Virus record (IMG/VR): IMGVR_UViG_3300030330_004274
Location: 1 to 64,000 of that record
Reading direction: 5' to 3' (one strand)
Source: a virus
Lineage: Duplodnaviria; Caudoviricetes
Length of the DNA: 64,000 nucleotides
Within the stretch, counting starts at the first letter, position 1, and each line of letters begins with the position of its first letter. Below, piece by piece: positions 48,047 through 58,505 of the stretch. The notes beneath the pieces were generated by a model. That model ran no database searches. It worked only from the letters and a program-made list of their open reading frames with translations, and was not told the DNA's origin. Position numbers and translations under genes: made by a program.

Positions 48047-48910
48047 ATGAGTAAAAATAAAAGTTCTCAAAAAAAGGTTTCACTTCAAGAGTTAAATAAT
48101 CACGCGACAACAAATAAACGACAAGCCCTCAAGGATTTAAAAATGTTAAACTTTGATGAATTACAATATAAGAATCCAGCACAAAAAAGATTCTATAAAA
48201 CTATATCTAAAAAAGATATAACATTTGGGATTGGTCCTGCTGGGTGTGGTAAAACATATTTATCAGTTCATAGGGCATTAAGAGAGTTAGGTGATAAAAC
48301 AAATCATATAGATGGTATTGTTATTGTTAAACCTCTCGTAGAAGCTGCTGGTGAAAAGATAGGATATTTACCAGGTGATGTAGAAGAAAAAACAGCACCA
48401 TTTATGATGTCGTTTTATTACAATATGGAACAGATTATTGGTAAACAAAGATTACAAGTACTAAAGGAAAGTAATACAATTCAAGTAATACCATTAGCAT
48501 TTATGAGAGGTATTACTCTTGCAAATAAATTTGTTATACTTGATGAAGCACAAAATGCAACACCTGAACAAATCAAAATGTTTGTTACAAGAATCGGTGA
48601 GAATAGTAAATATATTATCACAGGTGATTTGGAACAATCTGATATATCTAAACACAAGAGTGGATTAGAAGATGCAATCAAAAGATTTGCTGGTGTACAC
48701 GGAGTAGGTTTGGCATCATTTAAAGAAAAAGATGTTGTTAGACATTCATTAGTAAGACGATTACTGAAAAGATATAAACCATCATTTAATGTTATTGATG
48801 AAACATCTGCGGAAGATACCATATCAATGTGGATTCACGATGAAGGTTTAGATACACCAGAAGATGGTTCAATAGAATCAAAGGATTGGCAATATCAATT
48901 AAAACAATAA
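48047..48910 (+). CDS. phoH: PhoH-family ATPase
   Basis: GPAGCGKT, GYLPG, FMRG.T, ILDEAQN, TRIG, GD..QSD, VVRH. Confidence 0.92.
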   Translation: MSKNKSSQKKVSLQELNNHATTNKRQALKDLKMLNFDELQYKNPAQKRFYKTISKKDITFGIGPAGCGKTYLSVHRALRELGDKTNHIDGIVIVKPLVEAAGEKIGYLPGDVEEKTAPFMMSFYYNMEQIIGKQRLQVLKESNTIQVIPLAFMRGITLANKFVILDEAQNATPEQIKMFVTRIGENSKYIITGDLEQSDISKHKSGLEDAIKRFAGVHGVGLASFKEKDVVRHSLVRRLLKRYKPSFNVIDETSAEDTISMWIHDEGLDTPEDGSIESKDWQYQLKQ

Positions 48911-48988
48911 AATAAAAAAAAGCGTTGACTTTAATACTATAAAGGTTGTATATTGTTATATGTATTTTAATAATATAGGAGAATCTTT

Positions 48989-49507
48989 ATGATTAAAACA
49001 TCTCATGCAATGTTAGTATCTGTAATAGCAATGTTAAGTTTAACTTGGTATTTTGATGGTATAACAGATAAACATTGGGAAGAAAGAAAAAGGTTGCAGG
49101 ATAAATTAACAAAGTTAGAAAGTGATTGTAGTAATATGTATCCAAACAGAATATCTTATAATGTTACGGTTACTACTTACAATCCAACTCGAAGACAATG
49201 TGATTCAACACCTAATATTACAGCAGATGGTACAAAGTTTCATACTTGGAAAGCATCTTCATACAGATATGTTGCTTTATCAAGAGATTTACTTTCTCGT
49301 TGGGGTGGGCCTTTTAACTACGGAGATTATATCGTAATAGAAGGAACTGGTGATAGGGATGGTGTGTATCAGGTAAGAGATACAATGAACCCTAAATGGA
49401 CAAATAGAGTTGATATTCTTACCACAAATAGTAGGTTTAAATATGATAACATTACTATGTACAAATACATAAAGGATGAATATTTACTTACAGATAATAG
49501 TTATTAA
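48989..49507 (+). CDS. 3D-domain (DPBB) cell-wall hydrolase-like protein with a membrane anchor
   Basis: TYNP...QCDSTPNITADG, VALSRDLL, VRDTM...VDIL. Confidence 0.7.
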   Translation: MIKTSHAMLVSVIAMLSLTWYFDGITDKHWEERKRLQDKLTKLESDCSNMYPNRISYNVTVTTYNPTRRQCDSTPNITADGTKFHTWKASSYRYVALSRDLLSRWGGPFNYGDYIVIEGTGDRDGVYQVRDTMNPKWTNRVDILTTNSRFKYDNITMYKYIKDEYLLTDNSY

Positions 49508-49525
49508 ACATAGGAGAAGCACAAT

Positions 49526-49711
49526 ATGAAGTGTATGATGAGTGTGGATGGCTCTAACATCGTTAGAGTCTCTGATGATAAAGCAGCTGAATTATTTCAC
49601 GAGGGTTATAGATATGTAGCTAAATCAGTTTGGAAAGAAAAAGTTCGTGATGTAAATAAAAAAGAAGAACCCAAGAAAACAAAAAAATCAAATAAGAAAA
49701 AAAGAAAATGA
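49526..49711 (+). CDS. hypothetical protein
   Basis: AGGAG RBS. Confidence 0.55.
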   Translation: MKCMMSVDGSNIVRVSDDKAAELFHEGYRYVAKSVWKEKVRDVNKKEEPKKTKKSNKKKRK

Positions 49712-50049
49712 TTAAATACATTCTTCTTTCAATAGCAACATTTATAGTTGTTAATATTCTTGTATGGTATCAACTTAATTCACAACTTGTATGGGATTGG
49801 GCTAAGGGATATAAATCTATGTGGATTATGTCTTTACTTGGTATTCCAATTAGTTTATTATTTTGGTTGTGTACTAAATGGGGATATTTAGGTTTTGGAA
49901 ATCTATGGGCTGTTAGATGGTTAGCATTTGGTAGTTCAATGATTGTATTTCCAATTATGACTTATTTTTATCTTGGAGAGGTTATAACATTAAAAACATT
50001 AATAAGTATTATATTATCTATATTAATAATATTATTACAGTTAATATAG
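49708..50049 (+). CDS. four-helix membrane protein
   Basis: Four hydrophobic segments; DMT/SMR-like size. Confidence 0.55.
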   Translation: MIKYILLSIATFIVVNILVWYQLNSQLVWDWAKGYKSMWIMSLLGIPISLLFWLCTKWGYLGFGNLWAVRWLAFGSSMIVFPIMTYFYLGEVITLKTLISIILSILIILLQLI

Positions 50050-50100
50050 CTTATAAGCTATTAGCTGTTAGCTTGTTAATTATTAAGCTTTTTAGCTATA
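50045..50100. repeat. array of six AGCT palindromes within an imperfect inverted repeat
   Basis: AGCT at 50048, 50056, 50063, 50070, 50086 and 50094. Confidence 0.85.
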
Positions 50101-50115
50101 TATAGGGAAAAAATT

Positions 50116-51756
50116 ATGAAAACAACAAAATATTTTTATGAACGGTCGAAATTTAAAGAATTTGTATCTAATATTACTTATCATCAGTTATTACAAATGA
50201 GTGATGATGATTTTAATAAATGGGCTAAATCATTAAGAAATGAAGTAGCAACTCAATGGGATACAACTAATACACCACCTGTGATTGGAAAAGATGAAGA
50301 GGGTATAATTAAATCATTTAAAAAGTTATCAGCAAATAAATGTGATTTCTTACAAGAAGATTATACTGATGATTCAGAATCACTTGGTATTATTCAGAAC
50401 TTTAATAAAGATGCATCTGCATGTAATCAATTTTTCCCAACAATGTTAAAGACAAAAATTTCTATTGGTAAATCTGCTGATGGTGGGTTATCAATCTATG
50501 ACCATTTTGCATTACCAGAATTAGAAGATAAATTTATTAGAGTTATGAAACGAGCAGTTAAAAGAGATAGTATGTATTCTTACTCTCGTTCTATCGTAAA
50601 CAAAAAAGATGAGAATCCATTTTGGGATGGGGAATCTGCATATGATTTTATTAAAAAAGTTAAAGATGAAAATTTACTTTCAGATAAATGGAAAGATATT
50701 GGTATTTGGATTGCAAGGGTAAAAGATTTAAATCTAAATAACTATGGAACTACAAATGAAGCATACAAAGGATTTGGTAATCTTTATATGTCCGCAGATG
50801 AAGTTAATGAGTTAAAAAATAATGGTTATCTTACAGATACAATGTTATCTAATATCGATGAGGTAGTAGATAAAGAAGTTTTAAAAAGTGGTAAAGAAAA
50901 TAAATTTTATTATCTTATCAGATGGTATGATAAAACTATACCAATCTTTCCAAAGATATTACAAATATTTAGATTAAGTTGTGGACAACCTGCAGTTAAC
51001 TTTCCTGCATTAACTGCTAAAATGTTATATGAAAATTATACAGAACATATTACCAATCAAGATAAAGTAACTGTCTATGACCCATCATCTGGTTGGGGTG
51101 GAAGAATACTTGGAGCAATGTCATCAAACAAAAAAATTCATTATGTTGGAACAGACCCAAATACAGATAATATCATAGATGAGTTAGGAGTATCTCGTTA
51201 TCAGTATCTTGCAGATTTTTACAACGAACATTGTACCAATGATTATTCAGATACTGCACTAAACTTTTTTGAACCTGTTGAAGAACCAAATACATTTGAA
51301 GTTTTTTCTGATGGTAGTGAATTAATTGGGAACAATCCAAAGTTTCAAAAGTATAAGGGACAATTAGATTTTGTTTTTACATCTCCGCCATACTTTAATA
51401 GAGAGCAATATTCGGAAGATGAATCACAATCTTTTAAAGCATACAACGAGTATGAGGATTGGAGAGATAATTTTTTAAGACCTACCTTAACAACTGCATA
51501 TGAATATTTAAAACACGATAGATATATTTTATGGAACATAGCATCTATAAAAATTGGTTCTGATACATATTACGATTTAGAAGGTGATTCAAGAAAAATA
51601 TTAGAAGAACTTGGTTGTGAGTATAAAGGTAAATTAAAAATGTTAATGACAAGAATGGTTGGGTTAGACCCATCAAAGAGTGGAATATTAAATAGTGTTA
51701 AACATCAAAACAAGGCATACAAGTATGAACCAATATTTGTATTTTATAAAGGATAA
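50116..51756 (+). CDS. amino (N4-C/N6-A) DNA methyltransferase-like protein
   Basis: Motif I YDPSSGWGG, GTDPN, motif IV FTSPPY. Confidence 0.75.
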   Translation: MKTTKYFYERSKFKEFVSNITYHQLLQMSDDDFNKWAKSLRNEVATQWDTTNTPPVIGKDEEGIIKSFKKLSANKCDFLQEDYTDDSESLGIIQNFNKDASACNQFFPTMLKTKISIGKSADGGLSIYDHFALPELEDKFIRVMKRAVKRDSMYSYSRSIVNKKDENPFWDGESAYDFIKKVKDENLLSDKWKDIGIWIARVKDLNLNNYGTTNEAYKGFGNLYMSADEVNELKNNGYLTDTMLSNIDEVVDKEVLKSGKENKFYYLIRWYDKTIPIFPKILQIFRLSCGQPAVNFPALTAKMLYENYTEHITNQDKVTVYDPSSGWGGRILGAMSSNKKIHYVGTDPNTDNIIDELGVSRYQYLADFYNEHCTNDYSDTALNFFEPVEEPNTFEVFSDGSELIGNNPKFQKYKGQLDFVFTSPPYFNREQYSEDESQSFKAYNEYEDWRDNFLRPTLTTAYEYLKHDRYILWNIASIKIGSDTYYDLEGDSRKILEELGCEYKGKLKMLMTRMVGLDPSKSGILNSVKHQNKAYKYEPIFVFYKG

Positions 51757-51759
51757 GAT

Positions 51760-52446
51760 ATGCATATAATTAAAGCAACATCACCTACTGATGCGTGGTT
51801 ACAATCACACAAATACCTTTTAGAGAATGGTGATAAAAAAGTTATGAATGAAAGTATAAATATGTCAGTAGAGATAGAAGATAATTTTGATACTGATGAA
51901 AAGTTTGATTCTTTATTCAGAAAAATATTTGGAGATGAGAGAATAGATTATGCAAGTTCTGTTACATTTGTTCCACCAAAACCTCATCCATTTGTAGATG
52001 GGTTACAATATCAGCAAAATGATACATCTGTTAAATGGAATAAAACTTATTGGGGTAGAATGATTTCTTGGAACAATGAGTTTAATCAAATAGAACAAAC
52101 TATTAAAAGATTAAAAGAACATAAGAACTCTAAAACAATTGCAATGCAAATCTATGACCCAAAATCTGATGGAAGAAAAACTATGAGTGGGATGCCTTGT
52201 TTGTTGAGTATTGATTTAAAACCAAGAAAAGAAGGTTTGTATCTAACTGCATTTTTTCGTAGTATGAGAATTAGTAAGAGTGGATATGCAGATTGGGTTG
52301 CACTATGTGAGATGGGTAAGTTCCTTTGTGAACAGGCAGATTTAAAATTAAAAAGAGTTACAACAATTGGTGGTTCAGTTCATCTTGGTGATATGAATAA
52401 TGAAAAGAAAAATGTGAGGGAATTATTTAATGTGTGGAATAGCTAG
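51760..52446 (+). CDS. thymidylate synthase-superfamily protein (dCMP hydroxymethylase-like)
   Basis: YWGRM, NQIE, catalytic PC, FFRS...D, GSVH. Confidence 0.7.
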   Translation: MHIIKATSPTDAWLQSHKYLLENGDKKVMNESINMSVEIEDNFDTDEKFDSLFRKIFGDERIDYASSVTFVPPKPHPFVDGLQYQQNDTSVKWNKTYWGRMISWNNEFNQIEQTIKRLKEHKNSKTIAMQIYDPKSDGRKTMSGMPCLLSIDLKPRKEGLYLTAFFRSMRISKSGYADWVALCEMGKFLCEQADLKLKRVTTIGGSVHLGDMNNEKKNVRELFNVWNS

Positions 52447-53950
52447 TATAATAGGTAAAGATTATAACAATGAACGCAACTCTAAATCTATGGCTGAGAT
52501 GTTGAGAAAAATAGAACATCGTGGTAGAGATAATAGTAGTGTTGATTTTAAAACTTATAAAAGAAAAACTATTTGGCTTGGACATAACAGATTATCAATC
52601 AATGATGTTTCTAAAGATGGTAATCAACCAATGCATTATAAAGATACTTCATTAATAGTTAATGGTGAGATTTGGAATTATAAAGAATTAAGAAAAGAAT
52701 ATGAAACTCGTGGGTATAAATTTAACTCTAACTCGGATAGTGAAATAATTTTATATCTATATGCAGAAAATGAATTAAAACGATTGGATGGTATGTTTTC
52801 TTTTGTAATTCACGATAATAATAAACTTATTGTTTCAAGAGATTGGGTTGGTAAAATTCCTTCATACATATCAATAGGTTCAGAAATTTTTATTGCATCA
52901 GAACTGAAGGCATTCCCAAAACCAATTAGAGAAAATGCACAATTTGTTCCAAGAAATTCTTTAATTACAATTAATCTTGATAATGATATGATGGATGTTC
53001 AAGAAAATTATTATTTTAAATTTTCATCTGAAGTAACTAAAGCAACATCTCATAAAGAGGTTGGTGAAAAAACATATGAGTTATTAGATAATGCAGTTCG
53101 TAAAAGATTATTATCTGATGTTCCTATTGCTACAATTAATTCTGGTGGGATTGATTCTACTGTTATAACTTATTTGGCTTCACAATATATTGATAACATC
53201 ACAAGTTATACAATCAACTTTGACGAAGATTCTGAAGATTTAAAAATGGCAAGATTACTTTCTGAAAGAAATGGAATTAATCTTGTTGAAGTTAAAGTAC
53301 CACAAGATGATAAATTAATCAAACAACGATTTTTAGAATGTATAGAAACAATTGAATATCCACTAACAGTTCAAGTTGAAGTTGGTATCCTTTGTTCATT
53401 TATGGCAAAACAAATAAGTGATGATGGTTTTAAAGTAGTATTTTCTGGTGAGGGTTCTGATGAAGCATATGGTTCATATGGTATGTTAAGAATGTTTAGT
53501 AAGAAACCAGATTGGAGTGACATAAGAAAAGCGTTGTTTAATAAGCAATTTTATGGTAACTTATTAAGAGGTAATAATATCTTTATGAAATATGGAACAA
53601 TAGAAATGAGAACACCATTCTTTGATACAGAGTTTTTAAACTATACTACAAACTTACCAAACGAATATACAAGTAATGGTAGTATGTGGAAATATCCTTT
53701 AGTAAATGCGTTTAAAAATAAATTACCTGATGAGATATTATATCAAGCAAAAAGAGCATTTCAAAAAGGAACAAACTTCAAAGGTTATATAGAAGATATA
53801 ATATTAAGTGATGGTAAAATAAATTTTAATAATAGAAAAAATATATTGCATGTTATCAGAGACCATTATAATAAAAAGTTTGGAGTAAACTATAAAAGTA
53901 TTAGAAGAGAAGTTAAATCAACAGATAAAGGTATTCTACAATGGGTTTAA
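52430..53950 (+). CDS. asnB: asparagine synthetase B-like glutamine amidotransferase
   Basis: N-terminal CGI, HRG.D, HNRLSI, NGEIWN, SDSE, SGGIDS, SGEGSDE, R.PF.D. Confidence 0.85.
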   Translation: MCGIASIIGKDYNNERNSKSMAEMLRKIEHRGRDNSSVDFKTYKRKTIWLGHNRLSINDVSKDGNQPMHYKDTSLIVNGEIWNYKELRKEYETRGYKFNSNSDSEIILYLYAENELKRLDGMFSFVIHDNNKLIVSRDWVGKIPSYISIGSEIFIASELKAFPKPIRENAQFVPRNSLITINLDNDMMDVQENYYFKFSSEVTKATSHKEVGEKTYELLDNAVRKRLLSDVPIATINSGGIDSTVITYLASQYIDNITSYTINFDEDSEDLKMARLLSERNGINLVEVKVPQDDKLIKQRFLECIETIEYPLTVQVEVGILCSFMAKQISDDGFKVVFSGEGSDEAYGSYGMLRMFSKKPDWSDIRKALFNKQFYGNLLRGNNIFMKYGTIEMRTPFFDTEFLNYTTNLPNEYTSNGSMWKYPLVNAFKNKLPDEILYQAKRAFQKGTNFKGYIEDIILSDGKINFNNRKNILHVIRDHYNKKFGVNYKSIRREVKSTDKGILQWV

Positions 53951-54753
53951 ATCTTAACACACCAATTGAAACATATTATTTAAATAACATACCTGTTGAT
54001 GTTAAGAGAGATGATTTACATAATGGTGATTTAGATTTACCGCCTTGGGCAAAGATTGAAGGAGTAAGACAATTAATGACAAGTGAAATTATTGATAAGA
54101 ATAAACCACTTGTACATTTAGCAGTAAGAGGTTCTTATACAGGTTGGGTACTTGGACATTATGGTAAAGAATATGATTTAGATATTAGAATTGCATATGG
54201 AGATTCAAAAAATTATCCAAGAGAGATGTTAGATAAAGTAGAATCGTATGGTGCAAAACTTGTACCTCTTCGACCAAATATGATGGCTATACTTTATAAT
54301 TCAATGAGTAGTTTGGCTAGAGAAAAGGGATGGCAAAAATTACCATATGCATTTGACCACCCAATTTATCATCAGTATTGGTATGATAAAACAAAACAAT
54401 TTTTTGATGATAGTGATTACGATAATTTAGTTATTCTTGGTGGTAGTGGTGTTACTGGTATAGGAATGATAAATAGTTTTCTTGATACAGAAAATTTTAT
54501 TATGAATAAAAAAGTTTATATAATATCAACATCAACTATATCATCAGTAAAAAATAAATTATCAGAGTGGAAATCTTATTTCCCTAATAACACAATCATA
54601 AAAGATACACCTTATGATTTTTATGATGAAATGAAAGATTATGAAACACCATTTCCATGCAATGTCAATTGGGATAAAAAAGCATGGTGGTGGTTAGAAC
54701 AAAATATAAATAAAATCGATGGTTCAACTTTATTTTGGAACATCGGAGCATAG
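53941..54753 (+). CDS. PLP-dependent fold-type II (TrpB/ACC deaminase-like) enzyme
   Basis: TP...VKRDDL...AK, GGSGVT phosphate loop, WDKKAW, LFWNIG. Confidence 0.65.
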   Translation: MGLNLNTPIETYYLNNIPVDVKRDDLHNGDLDLPPWAKIEGVRQLMTSEIIDKNKPLVHLAVRGSYTGWVLGHYGKEYDLDIRIAYGDSKNYPREMLDKVESYGAKLVPLRPNMMAILYNSMSSLAREKGWQKLPYAFDHPIYHQYWYDKTKQFFDDSDYDNLVILGGSGVTGIGMINSFLDTENFIMNKKVYIISTSTISSVKNKLSEWKSYFPNNTIIKDTPYDFYDEMKDYETPFPCNVNWDKKAWWWLEQNINKIDGSTLFWNIGA

Positions 54754-54761
54754 GAGAACAA

Positions 54762-55493
54762 ATGTTAAAAGCAGAACAAATAGAAAATAATTGGAATAGT
54801 TTAATTAAATTAATAGAAGATTCTTTTGATGGTGAACGAAAAGATAATCTTTTAAAAATGTATAATCATTTAAAAGATAGAATGATGTTTGCACCAGCAA
54901 GTAGTAAAGAACATTTCCATAATGCATTTCCAGGTGGTTATGTAGACCATGTCTTAAACATCACAAGAGCAGTAAAGAGTGTTTATCAAACTTGGAAAGA
55001 ACACGGAGCACATATAAATTTTACTGAAGAGGAAATGATATTTGCTACTCTTCATCACGATTTAGGAAAAGTAGGTGATGATGAAATGGATTACTATATC
55101 CCAAATGAATCAGAATGGCATAGAAAAAATCAAGGTAAAATTTATACACCTAATCCAAAGTTACAATATATGAATGTATCAGATAGGTCGTTATGGTTAT
55201 TACAAAAGTTTAATGTAAAACTAAATCAAACCGAGTATATAGGATTGAAGTTAGCAGATGGATTATATGAAGAGGGTAACAAACAATATTTTATTTCATT
55301 TAGTCCAGATTTTGAATTACAGACAAATCTTCCACACATCATACATCAGGCAGATATGTTAGCATCAAAAACTGAAAGAGATAATTGGAAGTATGGGAAG
55401 AAAGAACAAGTTAATACAAAAGTTCCTAAAACACAAGATGAACAAAAACAAGTAGAAAATCTTAAATCAAAATTTGATGAGTTATTTGCTTAG
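54762..55493 (+). CDS. HD-domain phosphohydrolase
   Basis: APAS...H.A.PGG...H, LHHDLGKVG, HQAD. Confidence 0.8.
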   Translation: MLKAEQIENNWNSLIKLIEDSFDGERKDNLLKMYNHLKDRMMFAPASSKEHFHNAFPGGYVDHVLNITRAVKSVYQTWKEHGAHINFTEEEMIFATLHHDLGKVGDDEMDYYIPNESEWHRKNQGKIYTPNPKLQYMNVSDRSLWLLQKFNVKLNQTEYIGLKLADGLYEEGNKQYFISFSPDFELQTNLPHIIHQADMLASKTERDNWKYGKKEQVNTKVPKTQDEQKQVENLKSKFDELFA

Positions 55494-55502
55494 GAGAAAA
55501 TT

Positions 55503-55718
55503 ATGAAAAAATATTTAAAAAAAATAAATAAATGGTTAATAGATGTTACAGAAGTATTAAAAAATATTTTAGTATTTGCAGTGATATGTGGATTACTATT
55601 TAATGACCCATTTGGAATTATTAATACTATTAGTATTTTAATGAGTGGAGTGGGAGAGAAGGGATTGGCTGGGTTAATCTCTTTATTGATAATAATAACA
55701 ATGTATAGGGGGAAGTAA
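55503..55718 (+). CDS. small membrane protein (paralogue of 47694-47924)
   Basis: AGGAG RBS; G..GLAGLISLLIII. Confidence 0.6.
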   Translation: MKKYLKKINKWLIDVTEVLKNILVFAVICGLLFNDPFGIINTISILMSGVGEKGLAGLISLLIIITMYRGK

Positions 55719-55719
55719 T

Positions 55720-56004
55720 ATGTGGTGGTTATTCTTTGTTTTATTCTTTATCATTAGTATAGTATCATCTACTTTACTATATTTTTCGTTGAGAAGAATA
55801 ACACAATATGAAGAATTATTTCTTCAATTTCAACAAATAGTTACATTTGCTACACAGAAAATGAAATCAGTTGATACAAGAGGACATTATGAATCAGATG
55901 ATGAGACTGGATTTTTCTTTGAACAATTAAAACAATTACAATTAACTTTAGATGGAGTATTTGAAACAACAGAGGAGACGGAAGATGCCAAGAAAGAAAA
56001 CTAA
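55720..56004 (+). CDS. membrane-anchored hypothetical protein
   Basis: N-terminal TM; D..G.YESDDETGFFF. Confidence 0.6.
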   Translation: MWWLFFVLFFIISIVSSTLLYFSLRRITQYEELFLQFQQIVTFATQKMKSVDTRGHYESDDETGFFFEQLKQLQLTLDGVFETTEETEDAKKEN

Positions 56005-56707
56005 ACGAGAGCCTTATTTTGGAATGAAAGTTCAAGATGCAATTATTAGATATAATGCATTAGATGAACGAATAGATTTTTCAAAAAGGAATAAAATATA
56101 TCAAGAAGAAATTCATGCAGCGTTTGATAAACTATCAGAAAATATAATTAATACTTTTAAATTTAGTTATTTTGATGACCCGTTTAATGATGTAAAACAC
56201 GAAGTGGTAGCCTTTATGGTAATGAATATGCATAAATATGACCATACAAAAGGTTCAAAAGCATTTAGTTATTTTTCAGTTGTGGCTAAAAATTATTTAA
56301 TTCTTCATAACAATAATAATTATAAAAAATTAAAAACACATTCTGATATAACTACAATGCATAAACAACCACATTCTAATCTGTATGTAACAGAATCATC
56401 AGAATTTTATACTGATATATCAAAAGAACTTATAAAATATTTTAGTGAAAATATTCCAAATCTTTTTAAAAAGAAAAAAGATATGGATATTGCCTATTCT
56501 GTTTTAGAGTTGTTACAAAAACAAGAAGAGATAGAAAACTTTAATAAAAAAGCTCTTTACATTTTGATAAGAGAAATGACTAATGTTAAAACAAATGAAA
56601 TAACAAAAGTTGTTAATGTATTAAAAAAACATTATCGTAGAATAGTTTGGGATTACAATAATGGGGGAAAAAGTAAAAGCAACCCACCTATAAAAAGATT
56701 CTTCTAA
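55985..56707 (+). CDS. gp55-like phage sigma factor (late transcription)
   Basis: AII.YN, F.KL.ENII, KYD..KGSKAFSYFS.VAKNYLI (sigma region 2-like); upstream of structural genes. Confidence 0.6.
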   Translation: MPRKKTKREPYFGMKVQDAIIRYNALDERIDFSKRNKIYQEEIHAAFDKLSENIINTFKFSYFDDPFNDVKHEVVAFMVMNMHKYDHTKGSKAFSYFSVVAKNYLILHNNNNYKKLKTHSDITTMHKQPHSNLYVTESSEFYTDISKELIKYFSENIPNLFKKKKDMDIAYSVLELLQKQEEIENFNKKALYILIREMTNVKTNEITKVVNVLKKHYRRIVWDYNNGGKSKSNPPIKRFF

Positions 56708-56710
56708 CTT

Positions 56711-56741
56711 AAAGACCCCTACTTAAATGTGGGGGTTTTTT
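56711..56741 (+). terminator. intrinsic terminator
   Basis: GACCCCTAC/GTGGGGGTT stem followed by a T-run. Confidence 0.7.
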
Positions 56742-56792
56742 ATTATAATTTATATTTATATATGAATAGTTACATCTAATTAGGAGAATATT

Positions 56793-57188
56793 ATGTCAGA
56801 TGAAAAAGAAATATTTGAGGGAAAAACTTTCCAAGATTTAACAAAAGATATTTACGAAAATACTACAAAGCGTAAAACTCAAATTGATTTGTTAATATCA
56901 GAAATACACGGATTTATTCAAACCATAGATGATGTGGTAATGGTTGCACCTATTATAAAAGAATATATGGATACTGCTGTTAAGAATGATGAACATCTGG
57001 TTAAACTTGCTGGTGTACTACAAAGAATTATAAGTAAATCAAGTGGTACTAATGAGGAGAGTATGTTATTGTCCGATGCAGAAAAAGATGAGTTAATGGC
57101 TACACTTCAAGATACAGTCGAAGATTTAAATAATGAACAAAGTAGATTAGAAGGTATAAAAAATAAAACAATAGATTTGGGGAATTAA
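56793..57188 (+). CDS. conserved hypothetical protein
   Basis: AGGAG RBS; follows ATATTTATA at 56752. Confidence 0.6.
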   Translation: MSDEKEIFEGKTFQDLTKDIYENTTKRKTQIDLLISEIHGFIQTIDDVVMVAPIIKEYMDTAVKNDEHLVKLAGVLQRIISKSSGTNEESMLLSDAEKDELMATLQDTVEDLNNEQSRLEGIKNKTIDLGN

Positions 57189-58505
57189 ATGGGTTCAACA
57201 TTTACTACATTTCAAAGACCTGGTTTTGGATTTCTTAATGATAAGGAAGTATATTTACAATTTGTGCCTGGTAGTGTTGTAGAGGTAGTTACAAGTAAAG
57301 CATCTAAAACATATGCACAAGATAAATCTATGATGAATAGTATAATTGCATTACCACACATTTCAGAAAAACCTCAAAAGGAAACAATGTTAGATGAATC
57401 AAACCGTTATAAACCATTGTTTAGAGGTATGGTGGATGTGCCTGTAAAGGGTGACCCTGTCTTGTTATGTACTATTGCTGGTGTGAATTATTACTTAGGT
57501 CCATTAAATACACAAGGTGATGTAAACTTTAACATTGATAACGCGAGAAAACGAGATATTCAAATGAAAGCGAATACAGACCGTAACCCAACACCATTAG
57601 AAGAATTGGGTATATCAGATGCATTCCCAAGATATGCTCAAGAAAGATTACAAAAACCATATAATGATGAATTAGATAATCCAGGTAATGCAAAAATGTC
57701 CTTGTTAGAAATTCCAGGTGATATGGTATTTGAAGGTAGGTTTGGTAATAGTTTAAGGTTAGGAAGTAGATTTATAAATCCATATACAATACTTTCTAAT
57801 CGTAGAAGTATCCAAGCACATTCAGAATCAACAAGAGATGGTGGGTTGATATTTTTATCACATAAGGGAAGTATAAGACAACATTTTCAATTTGATGGGA
57901 AGTATAATGAAGATACTGAAGAAATAGAATTATCTCAATTTATTTTAGCAGATTCAGATGTTGAGGAACCAGATAGAAATATTCAATCTACATTTAGTAC
58001 TGCACTTGGTAGAGGAATTTTAGATGATGAAACTACATTTGATGCTGGTGTAGATATTTATGAATATGCAGATAATCAAATGTTATTAGCATCTGATAGA
58101 ATTATGCTTAATGCTCGTAAAGATAGTATATTTGTATCTTCATTTCAGTATTTACATTTTGGTGCTGGAAATACTATAACATTTTCTACAAATAATAATT
58201 TTCATATTTCTGCAGGAACAAGAACTGTTATAGATTCACCTGAAATAAAATTAGGTACAGATGATAATGACCTAACAGAACCATTAGTTCTTGGTGACCA
58301 ACTTGTAGATTTTTTAAAACAATTTTTAACTACAGTTAAAAAAATGAACGATACAATTACACAACAAGTTTTTGCAACTGGTGCAGGTCCAACTGCTGTT
58401 GGTCCAACTAATGCAGCTGCATTTAAAGCAATCAATACTTCAGATATTAAAAAATTAGAAGATACAATAGAAGAAATATTAAGTCAAACAAATAGAACAA
58501 CATAA
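57189..58505 (+). CDS. baseplate hub/spike (gp5-like) protein
   Basis: PVKGDPV.L OB-like region, GD...EGRFGNSLRLGS, SDRI.LNAR, EPLVLGD; context. Confidence 0.6.
   Translation: MGSTFTTFQRPGFGFLNDKEVYLQFVPGSVVEVVTSKASKTYAQDKSMMNSIIALPHISEKPQKETMLDESNRYKPLFRGMVDVPVKGDPVLLCTIAGVNYYLGPLNTQGDVNFNIDNARKRDIQMKANTDRNPTPLEELGISDAFPRYAQERLQKPYNDELDNPGNAKMSLLEIPGDMVFEGRFGNSLRLGSRFINPYTILSNRRSIQAHSESTRDGGLIFLSHKGSIRQHFQFDGKYNEDTEEIELSQFILADSDVEEPDRNIQSTFSTALGRGILDDETTFDAGVDIYEYADNQMLLASDRIMLNARKDSIFVSSFQYLHFGAGNTITFSTNNNFHISAGTRTVIDSPEIKLGTDDNDLTEPLVLGDQLVDFLKQFLTTVKKMNDTITQQVFATGAGPTAVGPTNAAAFKAINTSDIKKLEDTIEEILSQTNRTT

Follow-up and report, generated by a model that had tools for sequence, protein, structure and literature searches.

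In Pseudomonas phage M6 and Salmonella phage ViI, thymidine is hypermodified by a pathway that comprises a dUMP hydroxymethylase, 5-HMUDK, an amino-acid:DNA transferase, a radical S-adenosylmethionine (SAM) isomerase, and a pyridoxal phosphate (PLP)-dependent decarboxylase, gp52 or gp226 (PMC8989533). On the cytosine side, cyanophage S-B43 uses CmoX, an enzyme of methyltransferase (MTase) fold, to install a carboxymethyl handle that an asparagine-synthetase-like ligase then amidates. This ligase, SpCmoY, is an asparagine-synthetase homologue that adenylates 5-carboxymethylcytosine in DNA and ligates glycine to it; the CmoY relatives of another cluster also have a glutaminase domain, and ammonia is their predicted substrate (Yang et al. 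2025, PMC12783734). Here, we compare these systems with a cluster of five genes at positions 50116–55493 of a 64,000-nt stretch of DNA from an uncultured marine phage (Caudoviricetes), hereafter the window, which forms the first 64 kb of IMG/VR record IMGVR_UViG_3300030330_004274 (168,793 bp, 31% GC, rated ~95% complete). From sequence comparisons, we read the cluster, with a probability of roughly 0.6, as a widespread phage module that would replace or decorate a pyrimidine base of the viral DNA, with C5 of cytosine as the likeliest site, and leave a side chain that ends in an amide, an amine, or both.

The five open reading frames (ORFs) all lie on the + strand and encode a methyltransferase-like (MT-like) protein of 546 aa (50116–51756), a thymidylate synthase-like (TS-like) enzyme of 228 aa (51760–52446), an AsnB-like glutamine-dependent amidotransferase of 506 aa (52430–53950), a fold-type II PLP enzyme of 270 aa (53941–54753), and a predicted HD-fold metal-dependent hydrolase of 252 aa (54735–55493). 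Three nucleotides separate the first two genes, and the successive overlaps thereafter are 17, 10, and 19 nt. An earlier note on this DNA had described five contiguous or overlapping genes of these families, and both the co-directional arrangement and the family assignments hold, with the corrections that the MTase domain is complete rather than a fragment and that the HD protein may start further downstream. We interpret the cluster as a base-hypermodification module because the nearest characterised relatives of three of the five proteins make or tailor phage DNA bases, because the core genes are linked across several unrelated lineages, and because they are set among nucleotide and replication genes. 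The earlier note had proposed a hypermodification pathway without a characterised counterpart, and our literature searches likewise found no paper on this gene combination.

Core enzymes and their characterised relatives

Among cultured phages, tblastn matched the PLP enzyme, over its full length, only to the “threonine dehydratase” of Pseudomonas M6/YuA-group phages. In M6, this protein is gp52 (YP_001294560; tblastn 4e-17, blastp 3.7e-23), which aligns to residues 6–269 of the window enzyme with 27–29% identity over the full length. The predicted Schiff-base Lys38 corresponds to Lys36 of M6, and Lys38 and a GSGVT loop are invariant in 11 aligned sequences. The enzyme also matches phrog_7093 (“threonine dehydratase,” 1.5e-21) and has no Pfam match; its family profile reaches fold-type II enzymes, including the ACC deaminase homologue 1j0a, cysteine synthases, and aspartate racemase. 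Both gp52 and ViI gp226 are PLP-dependent decarboxylases whose substrates are amino acids that thymine already bears within DNA; gp52 decarboxylates DNA-borne C-alpha-glycinylthymine, and Lys36 was proposed as its Schiff-base lysine (Lee et al., PMC8989533). By its sequence, the window enzyme is a true gp52 homologue of the gp52/gp226 class with a possible decarboxylase role, and the earlier note's comparison with the M6 tailoring enzyme holds. The window phage resembles M6 and ViI in pairing a TS-family enzyme with a homologous fold-type II tailoring enzyme whose lysine is conserved. It differs from them in that its TS-like enzyme is short, of the cytosine type, and rebuilt in the cofactor pocket, and in that it has an AsnB-like amidotransferase and an MT-like enzyme with an SPPY motif; neither blastp nor phmmer found homologues of M6 gp51 (AADT/aGPT-Pplase), gp53 (radical SAM), gp54 (5-HMUDK), or gp59 (HD) in the genome.

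The TS-like enzyme has a short thymidylate-synthase fold and matches Pfam Thymidylat_synt (PF00303; 28.6 bits vs. a cut-off of 24.3) and TIGR03283 (2.5e-21). Its family is small, with an exhaustive search yielding 16 clusters at E < 1e-30. A single-sequence search of the Protein Data Bank (PDB) gave no match; with a profile, the 234-aa “thymidylate synthase” 9iqu/9iqc matched over its full length at 8e-15 and the CMP hydroxymethylase MilA at 2e-14. Pro146-Cys147, Arg167-Ser168, Lys173, Gly175-Tyr176, and Asp178 are invariant in 13 family members, and Cys147 is the catalytic nucleophile, Cys146 of ThyA. Mapped onto Escherichia coli ThyA by profile and family alignment, Asp178 takes the place of Asn177, Arg170 that of Asp169, and Gly144 that of Leu143. 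The enzyme thus lacks both the Asn177 by which ThyA selects uracil and the Asp169 that contacts the folate pterin, and the latter position is Arg or Ala in the 13 members and never Asp or Asn.

In related modifying enzymes, an N177D change selects dCMP, L143D/E accompanies hydroxymethyl products, and flavin-dependent 5-hydroxy-dCMP synthases are recognised by D169N (Lee et al. 2026, PMC13326640). The window enzyme shares its fold, Cys nucleophile, Arg-Ser pair, and Asp at the Asn177 position with the dCMP hydroxymethylase T4 gp42, with MilA, and with the flavin-dependent enzymes RB69 gp48, DLP3 gp80, and that of HY126 (PMC13326640). By contrast, its family has Arg or Ala at the Asp169 position in place of the folate-binding Asp or the Asn of 5-hydroxy-dCMP synthases, and the window enzyme has Gly at the Leu143 position in place of Asp or Glu. 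It therefore carries the N177D change of T4-type dCMP hydroxymethylases but neither their Asp or Glu at position 143 nor their retained Asp169, and it has Arg where the flavin-dependent enzymes have the diagnostic Asn. Judged by these residues, the TS-like enzyme is of the cytosine type and falls outside all three cofactor classes recognised so far. The earlier proposal of a C5-modified pyrimidine thus keeps its base modification reading, but “pyrimidine” is too broad, as the Asp at the Asn177 position makes cytosine the likelier target.

The AsnB-like protein joins an Ntn glutaminase domain bearing Cys2 (GATase_7) to a PP-loop synthetase domain (Asn_synthase). Several motifs of AsnB are kept: the N-terminal MCGI, the glutaminase motifs, the PP-loop NSGGIDST, and FSGEGSDE. 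At the aspartate site, E. coli AsnB has TTIRAS and human ASNS has TVRAS, and the window protein aligns VQVEVG to this stretch. The TTIRAS Arg, which we take from mutagenesis of E. coli AsnB to serve beta-aspartyl-AMP formation, is Glu or Gln in close phage family members and Ser in a distant paralogue of the type found at locus L029. Because this Arg is replaced, aspartate is probably not the substrate, and plain asparagine synthesis appears unlikely on this alignment, in agreement with the earlier note, which had thought it improbable.

A precedent for the AsnB-like protein is offered by CmoY of S-B43 (MN018232.1 147774-148589), an ATP-dependent enzyme of asparagine-synthetase fold that forms an amide on the side chain of cytosine in phage DNA and is homologous to the synthetase domain of the window protein. 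The hidden Markov model (HMM) of full-length AsnB-like proteins matches CmoY at 5.9e-16 over positions 232–475, and the HMM of the PP-loop-only proteins found in other versions of the module matches it at 6e-31. With phmmer, CmoY finds the window protein at 2.4e-7 and the protein of locus L052 at 3.5e-31, so that it stands closer to the PP-loop-only forms. The suggestion that an AsnB fold could amidate a base-borne carboxylate thus has a direct parallel known from experiment, one that the earlier note did not name. However, the window genome differs from S-B43 in lacking the carboxy-SAM (Cx-SAM) synthase CmoA and the C5-MTase CmoX (SPPC, R350), neither of which gave a phmmer match among its ORFs at E up to 1, and S-B43 in turn has nothing that corresponds to the PLP enzyme. 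Without CmoA and CmoX, either the TS-like or the SPPY-bearing MT-like enzyme would have to supply the handle.

These residues also bear on the most conservative explanation, in which a thymidylate synthase, an asparagine synthetase, a serine/threonine dehydratase-like enzyme, a DNA methylase, and a phosphohydrolase are simply co-located and serve ordinary auxiliary metabolism. The AsnB-like protein does exceed the TIGR01536 cut-off (295.9 vs. 267.1), the TS-like gene is the sole TS-family gene of the genome, in which a search for ThyX found none, and in related phages, the TS-like gene adjoins the ribonucleotide reductase (RNR) genes, where T4-like phages keep td. Yet the AsnB-like protein falls far below the AsnB equivalog cut-off (NF006949; 277.7 bits vs. 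499) and has lost the TTIRAS Arg, the TS-like enzyme has Asp at the Asn177 and Arg at the Asp169 position, the PLP enzyme has gp52 as its nearest characterised relative and no Pfam match, and the gene order is held across lineages of 28–47% GC. We consider this explanation very improbable.

Conserved linkage and variants of the module

The order MT-TS-AsnB-PLP-HD is kept in 23 of 23 related contigs of the window's lineage, among which the TS-like proteins share 82–95% identity and the AsnB-like, PLP, and HD proteins go down to ~50–58%. Because order within one lineage could reflect shared ancestry alone, we compared 95 TS-like loci from a viral-contig collection, which were scanned with HMMs and fell into 16 clusters at 65% TS identity. 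In the five clusters with enough flanking sequence, the TS-like gene was followed by an adjacent AsnB-like or PP-loop-only gene and PLP gene in 35/36, 23/23, 6/6, 3/3, and 1/1 loci, and these clusters span GC contents of 0.28–0.47. The synteny that the earlier note had asked for therefore exists: the core of TS-like, AsnB-like, and PLP genes recurs in four TS clusters besides that of the window, an arrangement far beyond chance. Four single or paired TS-like loci lack the PLP gene.

Around this core, the gene content varies. One to six MT-like paralogues flank it, often near RNR and DNA polymerase genes, and the largest cluster has the order helicase, RNR small subunit, RNR large subunit, thioredoxin, TS-like, AsnB-like, PLP, (MT-like), DNA polymerase B. 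In locus L052 (44% GC), MT-like, TS-like, and PLP genes are followed by a PP-loop domain, two genes without assignment, and a canonical N6_N4 methylase. A natural fusion of a TS-like and a radical SAM domain, 676 aa long (L051:7088-9118, P0130), has as neighbours an MT-like gene, a PP-loop Asn-synthase domain, and an ATP-grasp-like gene; this combination of domains in one relative of the module recalls M6 and ViI, and the combinatorial gene pattern of the module as a whole matches that of thymidine hypermodification clusters (PMC8989533).

There are also loci that lack a TS-like gene (L032:6856-11664, L027:4211-9188, and L024:289-6196). In these, PLP and MT-like genes occur with an Asp/Asn beta-hydroxylase-like 2-oxoglutarate-dependent enzyme, a D-2-hydroxyacid dehydrogenase, and a protein that weakly resembles glycosyltransferases, which suggests a second chemistry on the same PLP/MT pair. 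Two close relatives of the window phage (L029 and L030) have MT-like, distant AsnB-like, dehydrogenase, hydroxylase, PLP, and HD genes and likewise no TS-like gene.

Several loci carry further features. Six tandem or near-tandem MT-like paralogues surround the triad of TS-like, PP-loop, and PLP genes on a 375-kb jumbo-phage contig (L071:81-12587). In another phage group (L042:6134-11111), the PLP gene is accompanied by a D-2-hydroxyacid dehydrogenase gene only, without an MT-like gene within 7 kb, and adjoins genes for ThyX, a gp59-like helicase loader, and a protein-L-isoaspartate O-methyltransferase. An insertion of ~1.4 kb separates the AsnB-like and PLP genes in one relative (L014:2450-3859). 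Upstream of the module in L052, three consecutive ADPrib_exo_Tox genes (L052:1044-4259) are joined by a fourth that overruns the start of the locus; these ADP-ribosyltransferase genes may encode Alt-like enzymes that modify the host. Finally, relatives of the window phage (L011:8011-8832 and its syntenic loci, 19 loci) have, ~4.8 kb beyond the TS-like gene on its downstream side, a gene of glycoside hydrolase family 6 (Pfam 3e-47), and the window has none at this place.

The MT-like protein and possible modification of exocyclic amines

The MT-like protein scores 29.9 bits against Pfam N6_N4_Mtase (cut-off 26.7) and has a full domain from motif I (DPSSGWGGR) to motif IV (TSPPY) at residues ~286–545; DPSSGWGGR and TSPPY are invariant across an alignment of 19 homologues. 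The domain is preceded by an N-terminal region of 285 aa for which residues 1–285 gave no family match, and an Atlas feature search gave no usable hit. Against the PDB, a single-sequence search found no match and a profile search nothing usable. In its AlphaFold model (confidence, pLDDT, 80), the nearest structures are the exocyclic-amine tRNA methyltransferases Trm11, TrmN, and Trm14 at Z 14.7–15.5, poorly separated from other MTases, and Foldseek returned generic class I methyltransferases only. Homologues number more than 2,100, many of them from Tara ocean samples. In cultured Staphylococcus, Bacteroides, and Vibrio phages, relatives with ~30% identity occur on their own and carry annotations as DNA methylases or hypothetical proteins, and those of Bacteroides phage DAC16 and Vibrio phage 2.058.O have neither PLP nor TS-like neighbours.

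In an alternative reading, the MT-like enzyme itself is the starting point. It would place a carboxyl-bearing group on cytosine N4 or adenine N6 in defined sequence contexts, the donor being host carboxy-SAM for a carboxymethyl group or SAM for a 3-amino-3-carboxypropyl group; the AsnB-like protein would amidate this group, the PLP enzyme would trim it, and the TS-like enzyme would merely supply a C5-modified or ordinary pyrimidine nucleotide. In keeping with this, the PLP gene is found with an MT-like gene more often than with any other partner, TS-less loci included, up to six tandem paralogues would suit sequence-specific DNA enzymes, and both the SPPY motif and the nearest folds, Trm11 and TrmN, belong to exocyclic-amine transferases. 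CmoX provides a precedent for a carboxymethyl handle from an MTase fold followed by amidation by an asparagine-synthetase-like enzyme, and an aminocarboxypropyl group would, we infer, offer a gp52-like enzyme a free alpha-amino acid. However, we identified no residue for selection of carboxy-SAM or for redirected SAM chemistry, CmoA was not found in the genome, the relatives in cultured phages are annotated as ordinary methylases and may be just that, and the adjacency of the TS-like, AsnB-like, and PLP genes is tighter and steadier than that of the MT-like gene. We regard this route as unlikely and prefer modification at cytosine C5.

The HD protein, the genomic setting, and the question of the target

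The HD protein matches phrog_28876 (“metal-dependent phosphohydrolase,” 7.8e-11), and an alignment shows invariant HD residues at H62, H107-H108-D109, H204, and D207. The Pfam HD model gave no match to it or in a genome-wide search. Its start codon is TTG at 54735 or ATG at 54765, and the latter may be correct since some homologues begin there. In the model of the protein (pLDDT 82), the HD domain superposes on that of YhaM, a Bacillus 3'-5' exonuclease (9h3f; Z 16.6, rmsd 3.2 over 177 residues), with about twice the Z of any other listed chain, the next being at 8.7. Unlike YhaM, the window protein has no OB-fold domain, and the two share 14% identity; a profile search of the PDB gave nothing usable and there was no sequence-level match to YhaM. 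Among dNTPases and 5'-nucleotidases, SAMHD1, dGTPases, YfbR, and OxsA scored Z 6.5–7.3, and DatZ was not among the matches listed.

The HD gene is present in 23 of 24 loci of the window's lineage and elsewhere only in L024, L025, and L120; it is a lineage-specific addition to the module. M6 also has an HD gene near its TS gene, but its product, gp59, and the window protein show no sequence similarity. The earlier view of the HD protein as a DatZ-like dNTPase that depletes a competing nucleotide finds no support here, given the missing Pfam HD match, the lack of similarity to the M6 HD protein, YhaM as the nearest fold, and the absence of the gene from most versions of the module. Judging by the model, the protein is more likely an accessory nuclease or other phosphohydrolase than a DatZ-type dNTPase.

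The nearest folds of the HD and MT-like proteins are those of an exoribonuclease domain and of tRNA methyltransferases, and they invite the question of whether DNA is the target at all. The TS-like, AsnB-like, and PLP enzymes could instead yield a modified nucleotide or nucleoside that stays free as a metabolite, or could act on RNA of the host or the phage, in the manner of MilA-type CMP hydroxymethylases in nucleoside antibiotic pathways. The TS-like family has MilA as one of its best matches in the PDB, and all TS-family enzymes known to us act on mononucleotides. However, for two components, DNA is the substrate of the nearest relative that has been characterised, and the module sits amid RNR, thioredoxin, DNA polymerase, and clamp-loader genes. 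Phage genes were present on every module contig examined, although in a viral-contig collection, this does not by itself demonstrate restriction to phages. On balance, a product outside DNA seems quite unlikely to us, and DNA hypermodification is retained for the scheme below.

A proposed pathway

The comparisons show homologies, retained catalytic residues, and conserved gene order, from which we infer all of the pathway steps and their provisional order. First, Cys147 of the TS-like enzyme would attack C6 of dCMP (or CMP), leading to the addition of a carbon substituent at C5; since the cofactor pocket is rebuilt, the co-substrate would be something other than methylene-folate or flavin. Second, this substituent would bear or gain a carboxylate, which the AsnB-like protein would adenylate in the manner of CmoY-type ligases and convert to a carboxamide with glutamine-derived ammonia. 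PP-loop-only versions of the module would attach a different amine at this step. Third, an alpha-amino-acid portion of the side chain would be processed by the gp52-like PLP enzyme, which would decarboxylate it if its mode of action is that of gp52. Fourth, the SPPY-bearing MT-like enzyme would act on an exocyclic amine in DNA, where it would either methylate the modified DNA at specific sequences, like an ordinary methylase, or transfer some other group. Fifth, the HD protein would be an accessory of the lineage, a nuclease or phosphohydrolase that may clear unmodified nucleic acid or nucleotides.

In its most specific form, which we hold only tentatively, our proposal is that a TS-fold enzyme using neither folate nor flavin installs a new carbon side chain on cytosine nucleotides, and that the AsnB-like and PLP enzymes turn it into a new amide- or amine-ended DNA base common in abundant marine and freshwater phages. 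The starting chemistry would be new because the genome has no homologues of CmoA and CmoX, 5-HMUDK, or AADT.

Several observations weigh against hypermodification at cytosine C5. The same absence of homologues of CmoA/CmoX, 5-HMUDK, and AADT leaves the genome without a recognised source of the carboxylate, and searches of it also found no MazG, dCMP deaminase, or thymidylate kinase family gene for a full pre-replicative route, although no search aimed at a T4 gp1-type dNMP kinase was made. Amidation and decarboxylation would both draw on a single carboxylate, and at least one assigned role must then differ from that of the characterised relative. As the genome has neither a second TS-family gene nor ThyX, the TS-like gene may have a role in dTMP supply. 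PLP and MT-like genes occur without a TS-like gene, so the core may be defined otherwise, and the MT-like relatives in cultured phages may be plain DNA methylases. Lastly, no cultured relative carries the module, according to our searches of cultured phages.

Neighbouring genes

Nearly all genes of the window lie on the + strand. The cluster is preceded by genes for PhoH and a peptide deformylase and followed by baseplate wedge genes, and T4-type replication genes (gp59, gp32, and clamp loader) are found on related contigs. Directly downstream, two small conserved ORFs of 71 and 94 aa (55503–56004, + strand) belong to the same apparent transcription unit; they have no Pfam or PHROG match and are kept in L022, L028, L001, and L023. 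They are followed by a lineage-conserved protein of 251 aa (55952–56707, + strand), the last gene ahead of a terminator-like hairpin, for which Pfam and PHROG gave no match. Its nearest named Atlas clusters, whose record of the protein begins at residue 12, are viral and Bacillota sigma-70 region 2 proteins (Sigma70_r2; scores 0.97 and 0.94), a lead only. The protein may be a sigma-like phage factor and is probably outside the modification pathway. The hairpin, with a 12-bp stem and a T tract (56711–56740, + strand), lies downstream of the cluster past these three further small genes and is the sole intrinsic-terminator-like site in a scan of 48900–57300. A nucleotide search with the cluster gave zero matches in cultured phages. 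As for the host and lineage of the phage, a conserved 716-aa protein matched only one uncultured phage and one Microcystis phage.

Significance

Hypermodifications of phage DNA decide the outcomes of restriction, CRISPR, and other defences and have been a source of enzymes for biotechnology. The module described here is frequent in ocean metagenome contigs, with more than 2,100 MT-like homologues and 95 TS-like loci in 16 clusters, and it could affect sequencing or restriction-based handling of the DNA of these phages. Solving it would probably yield a new DNA base, a new reaction of the thymidylate-synthase fold, and a new substrate for a ligase of the asparagine-synthetase type.

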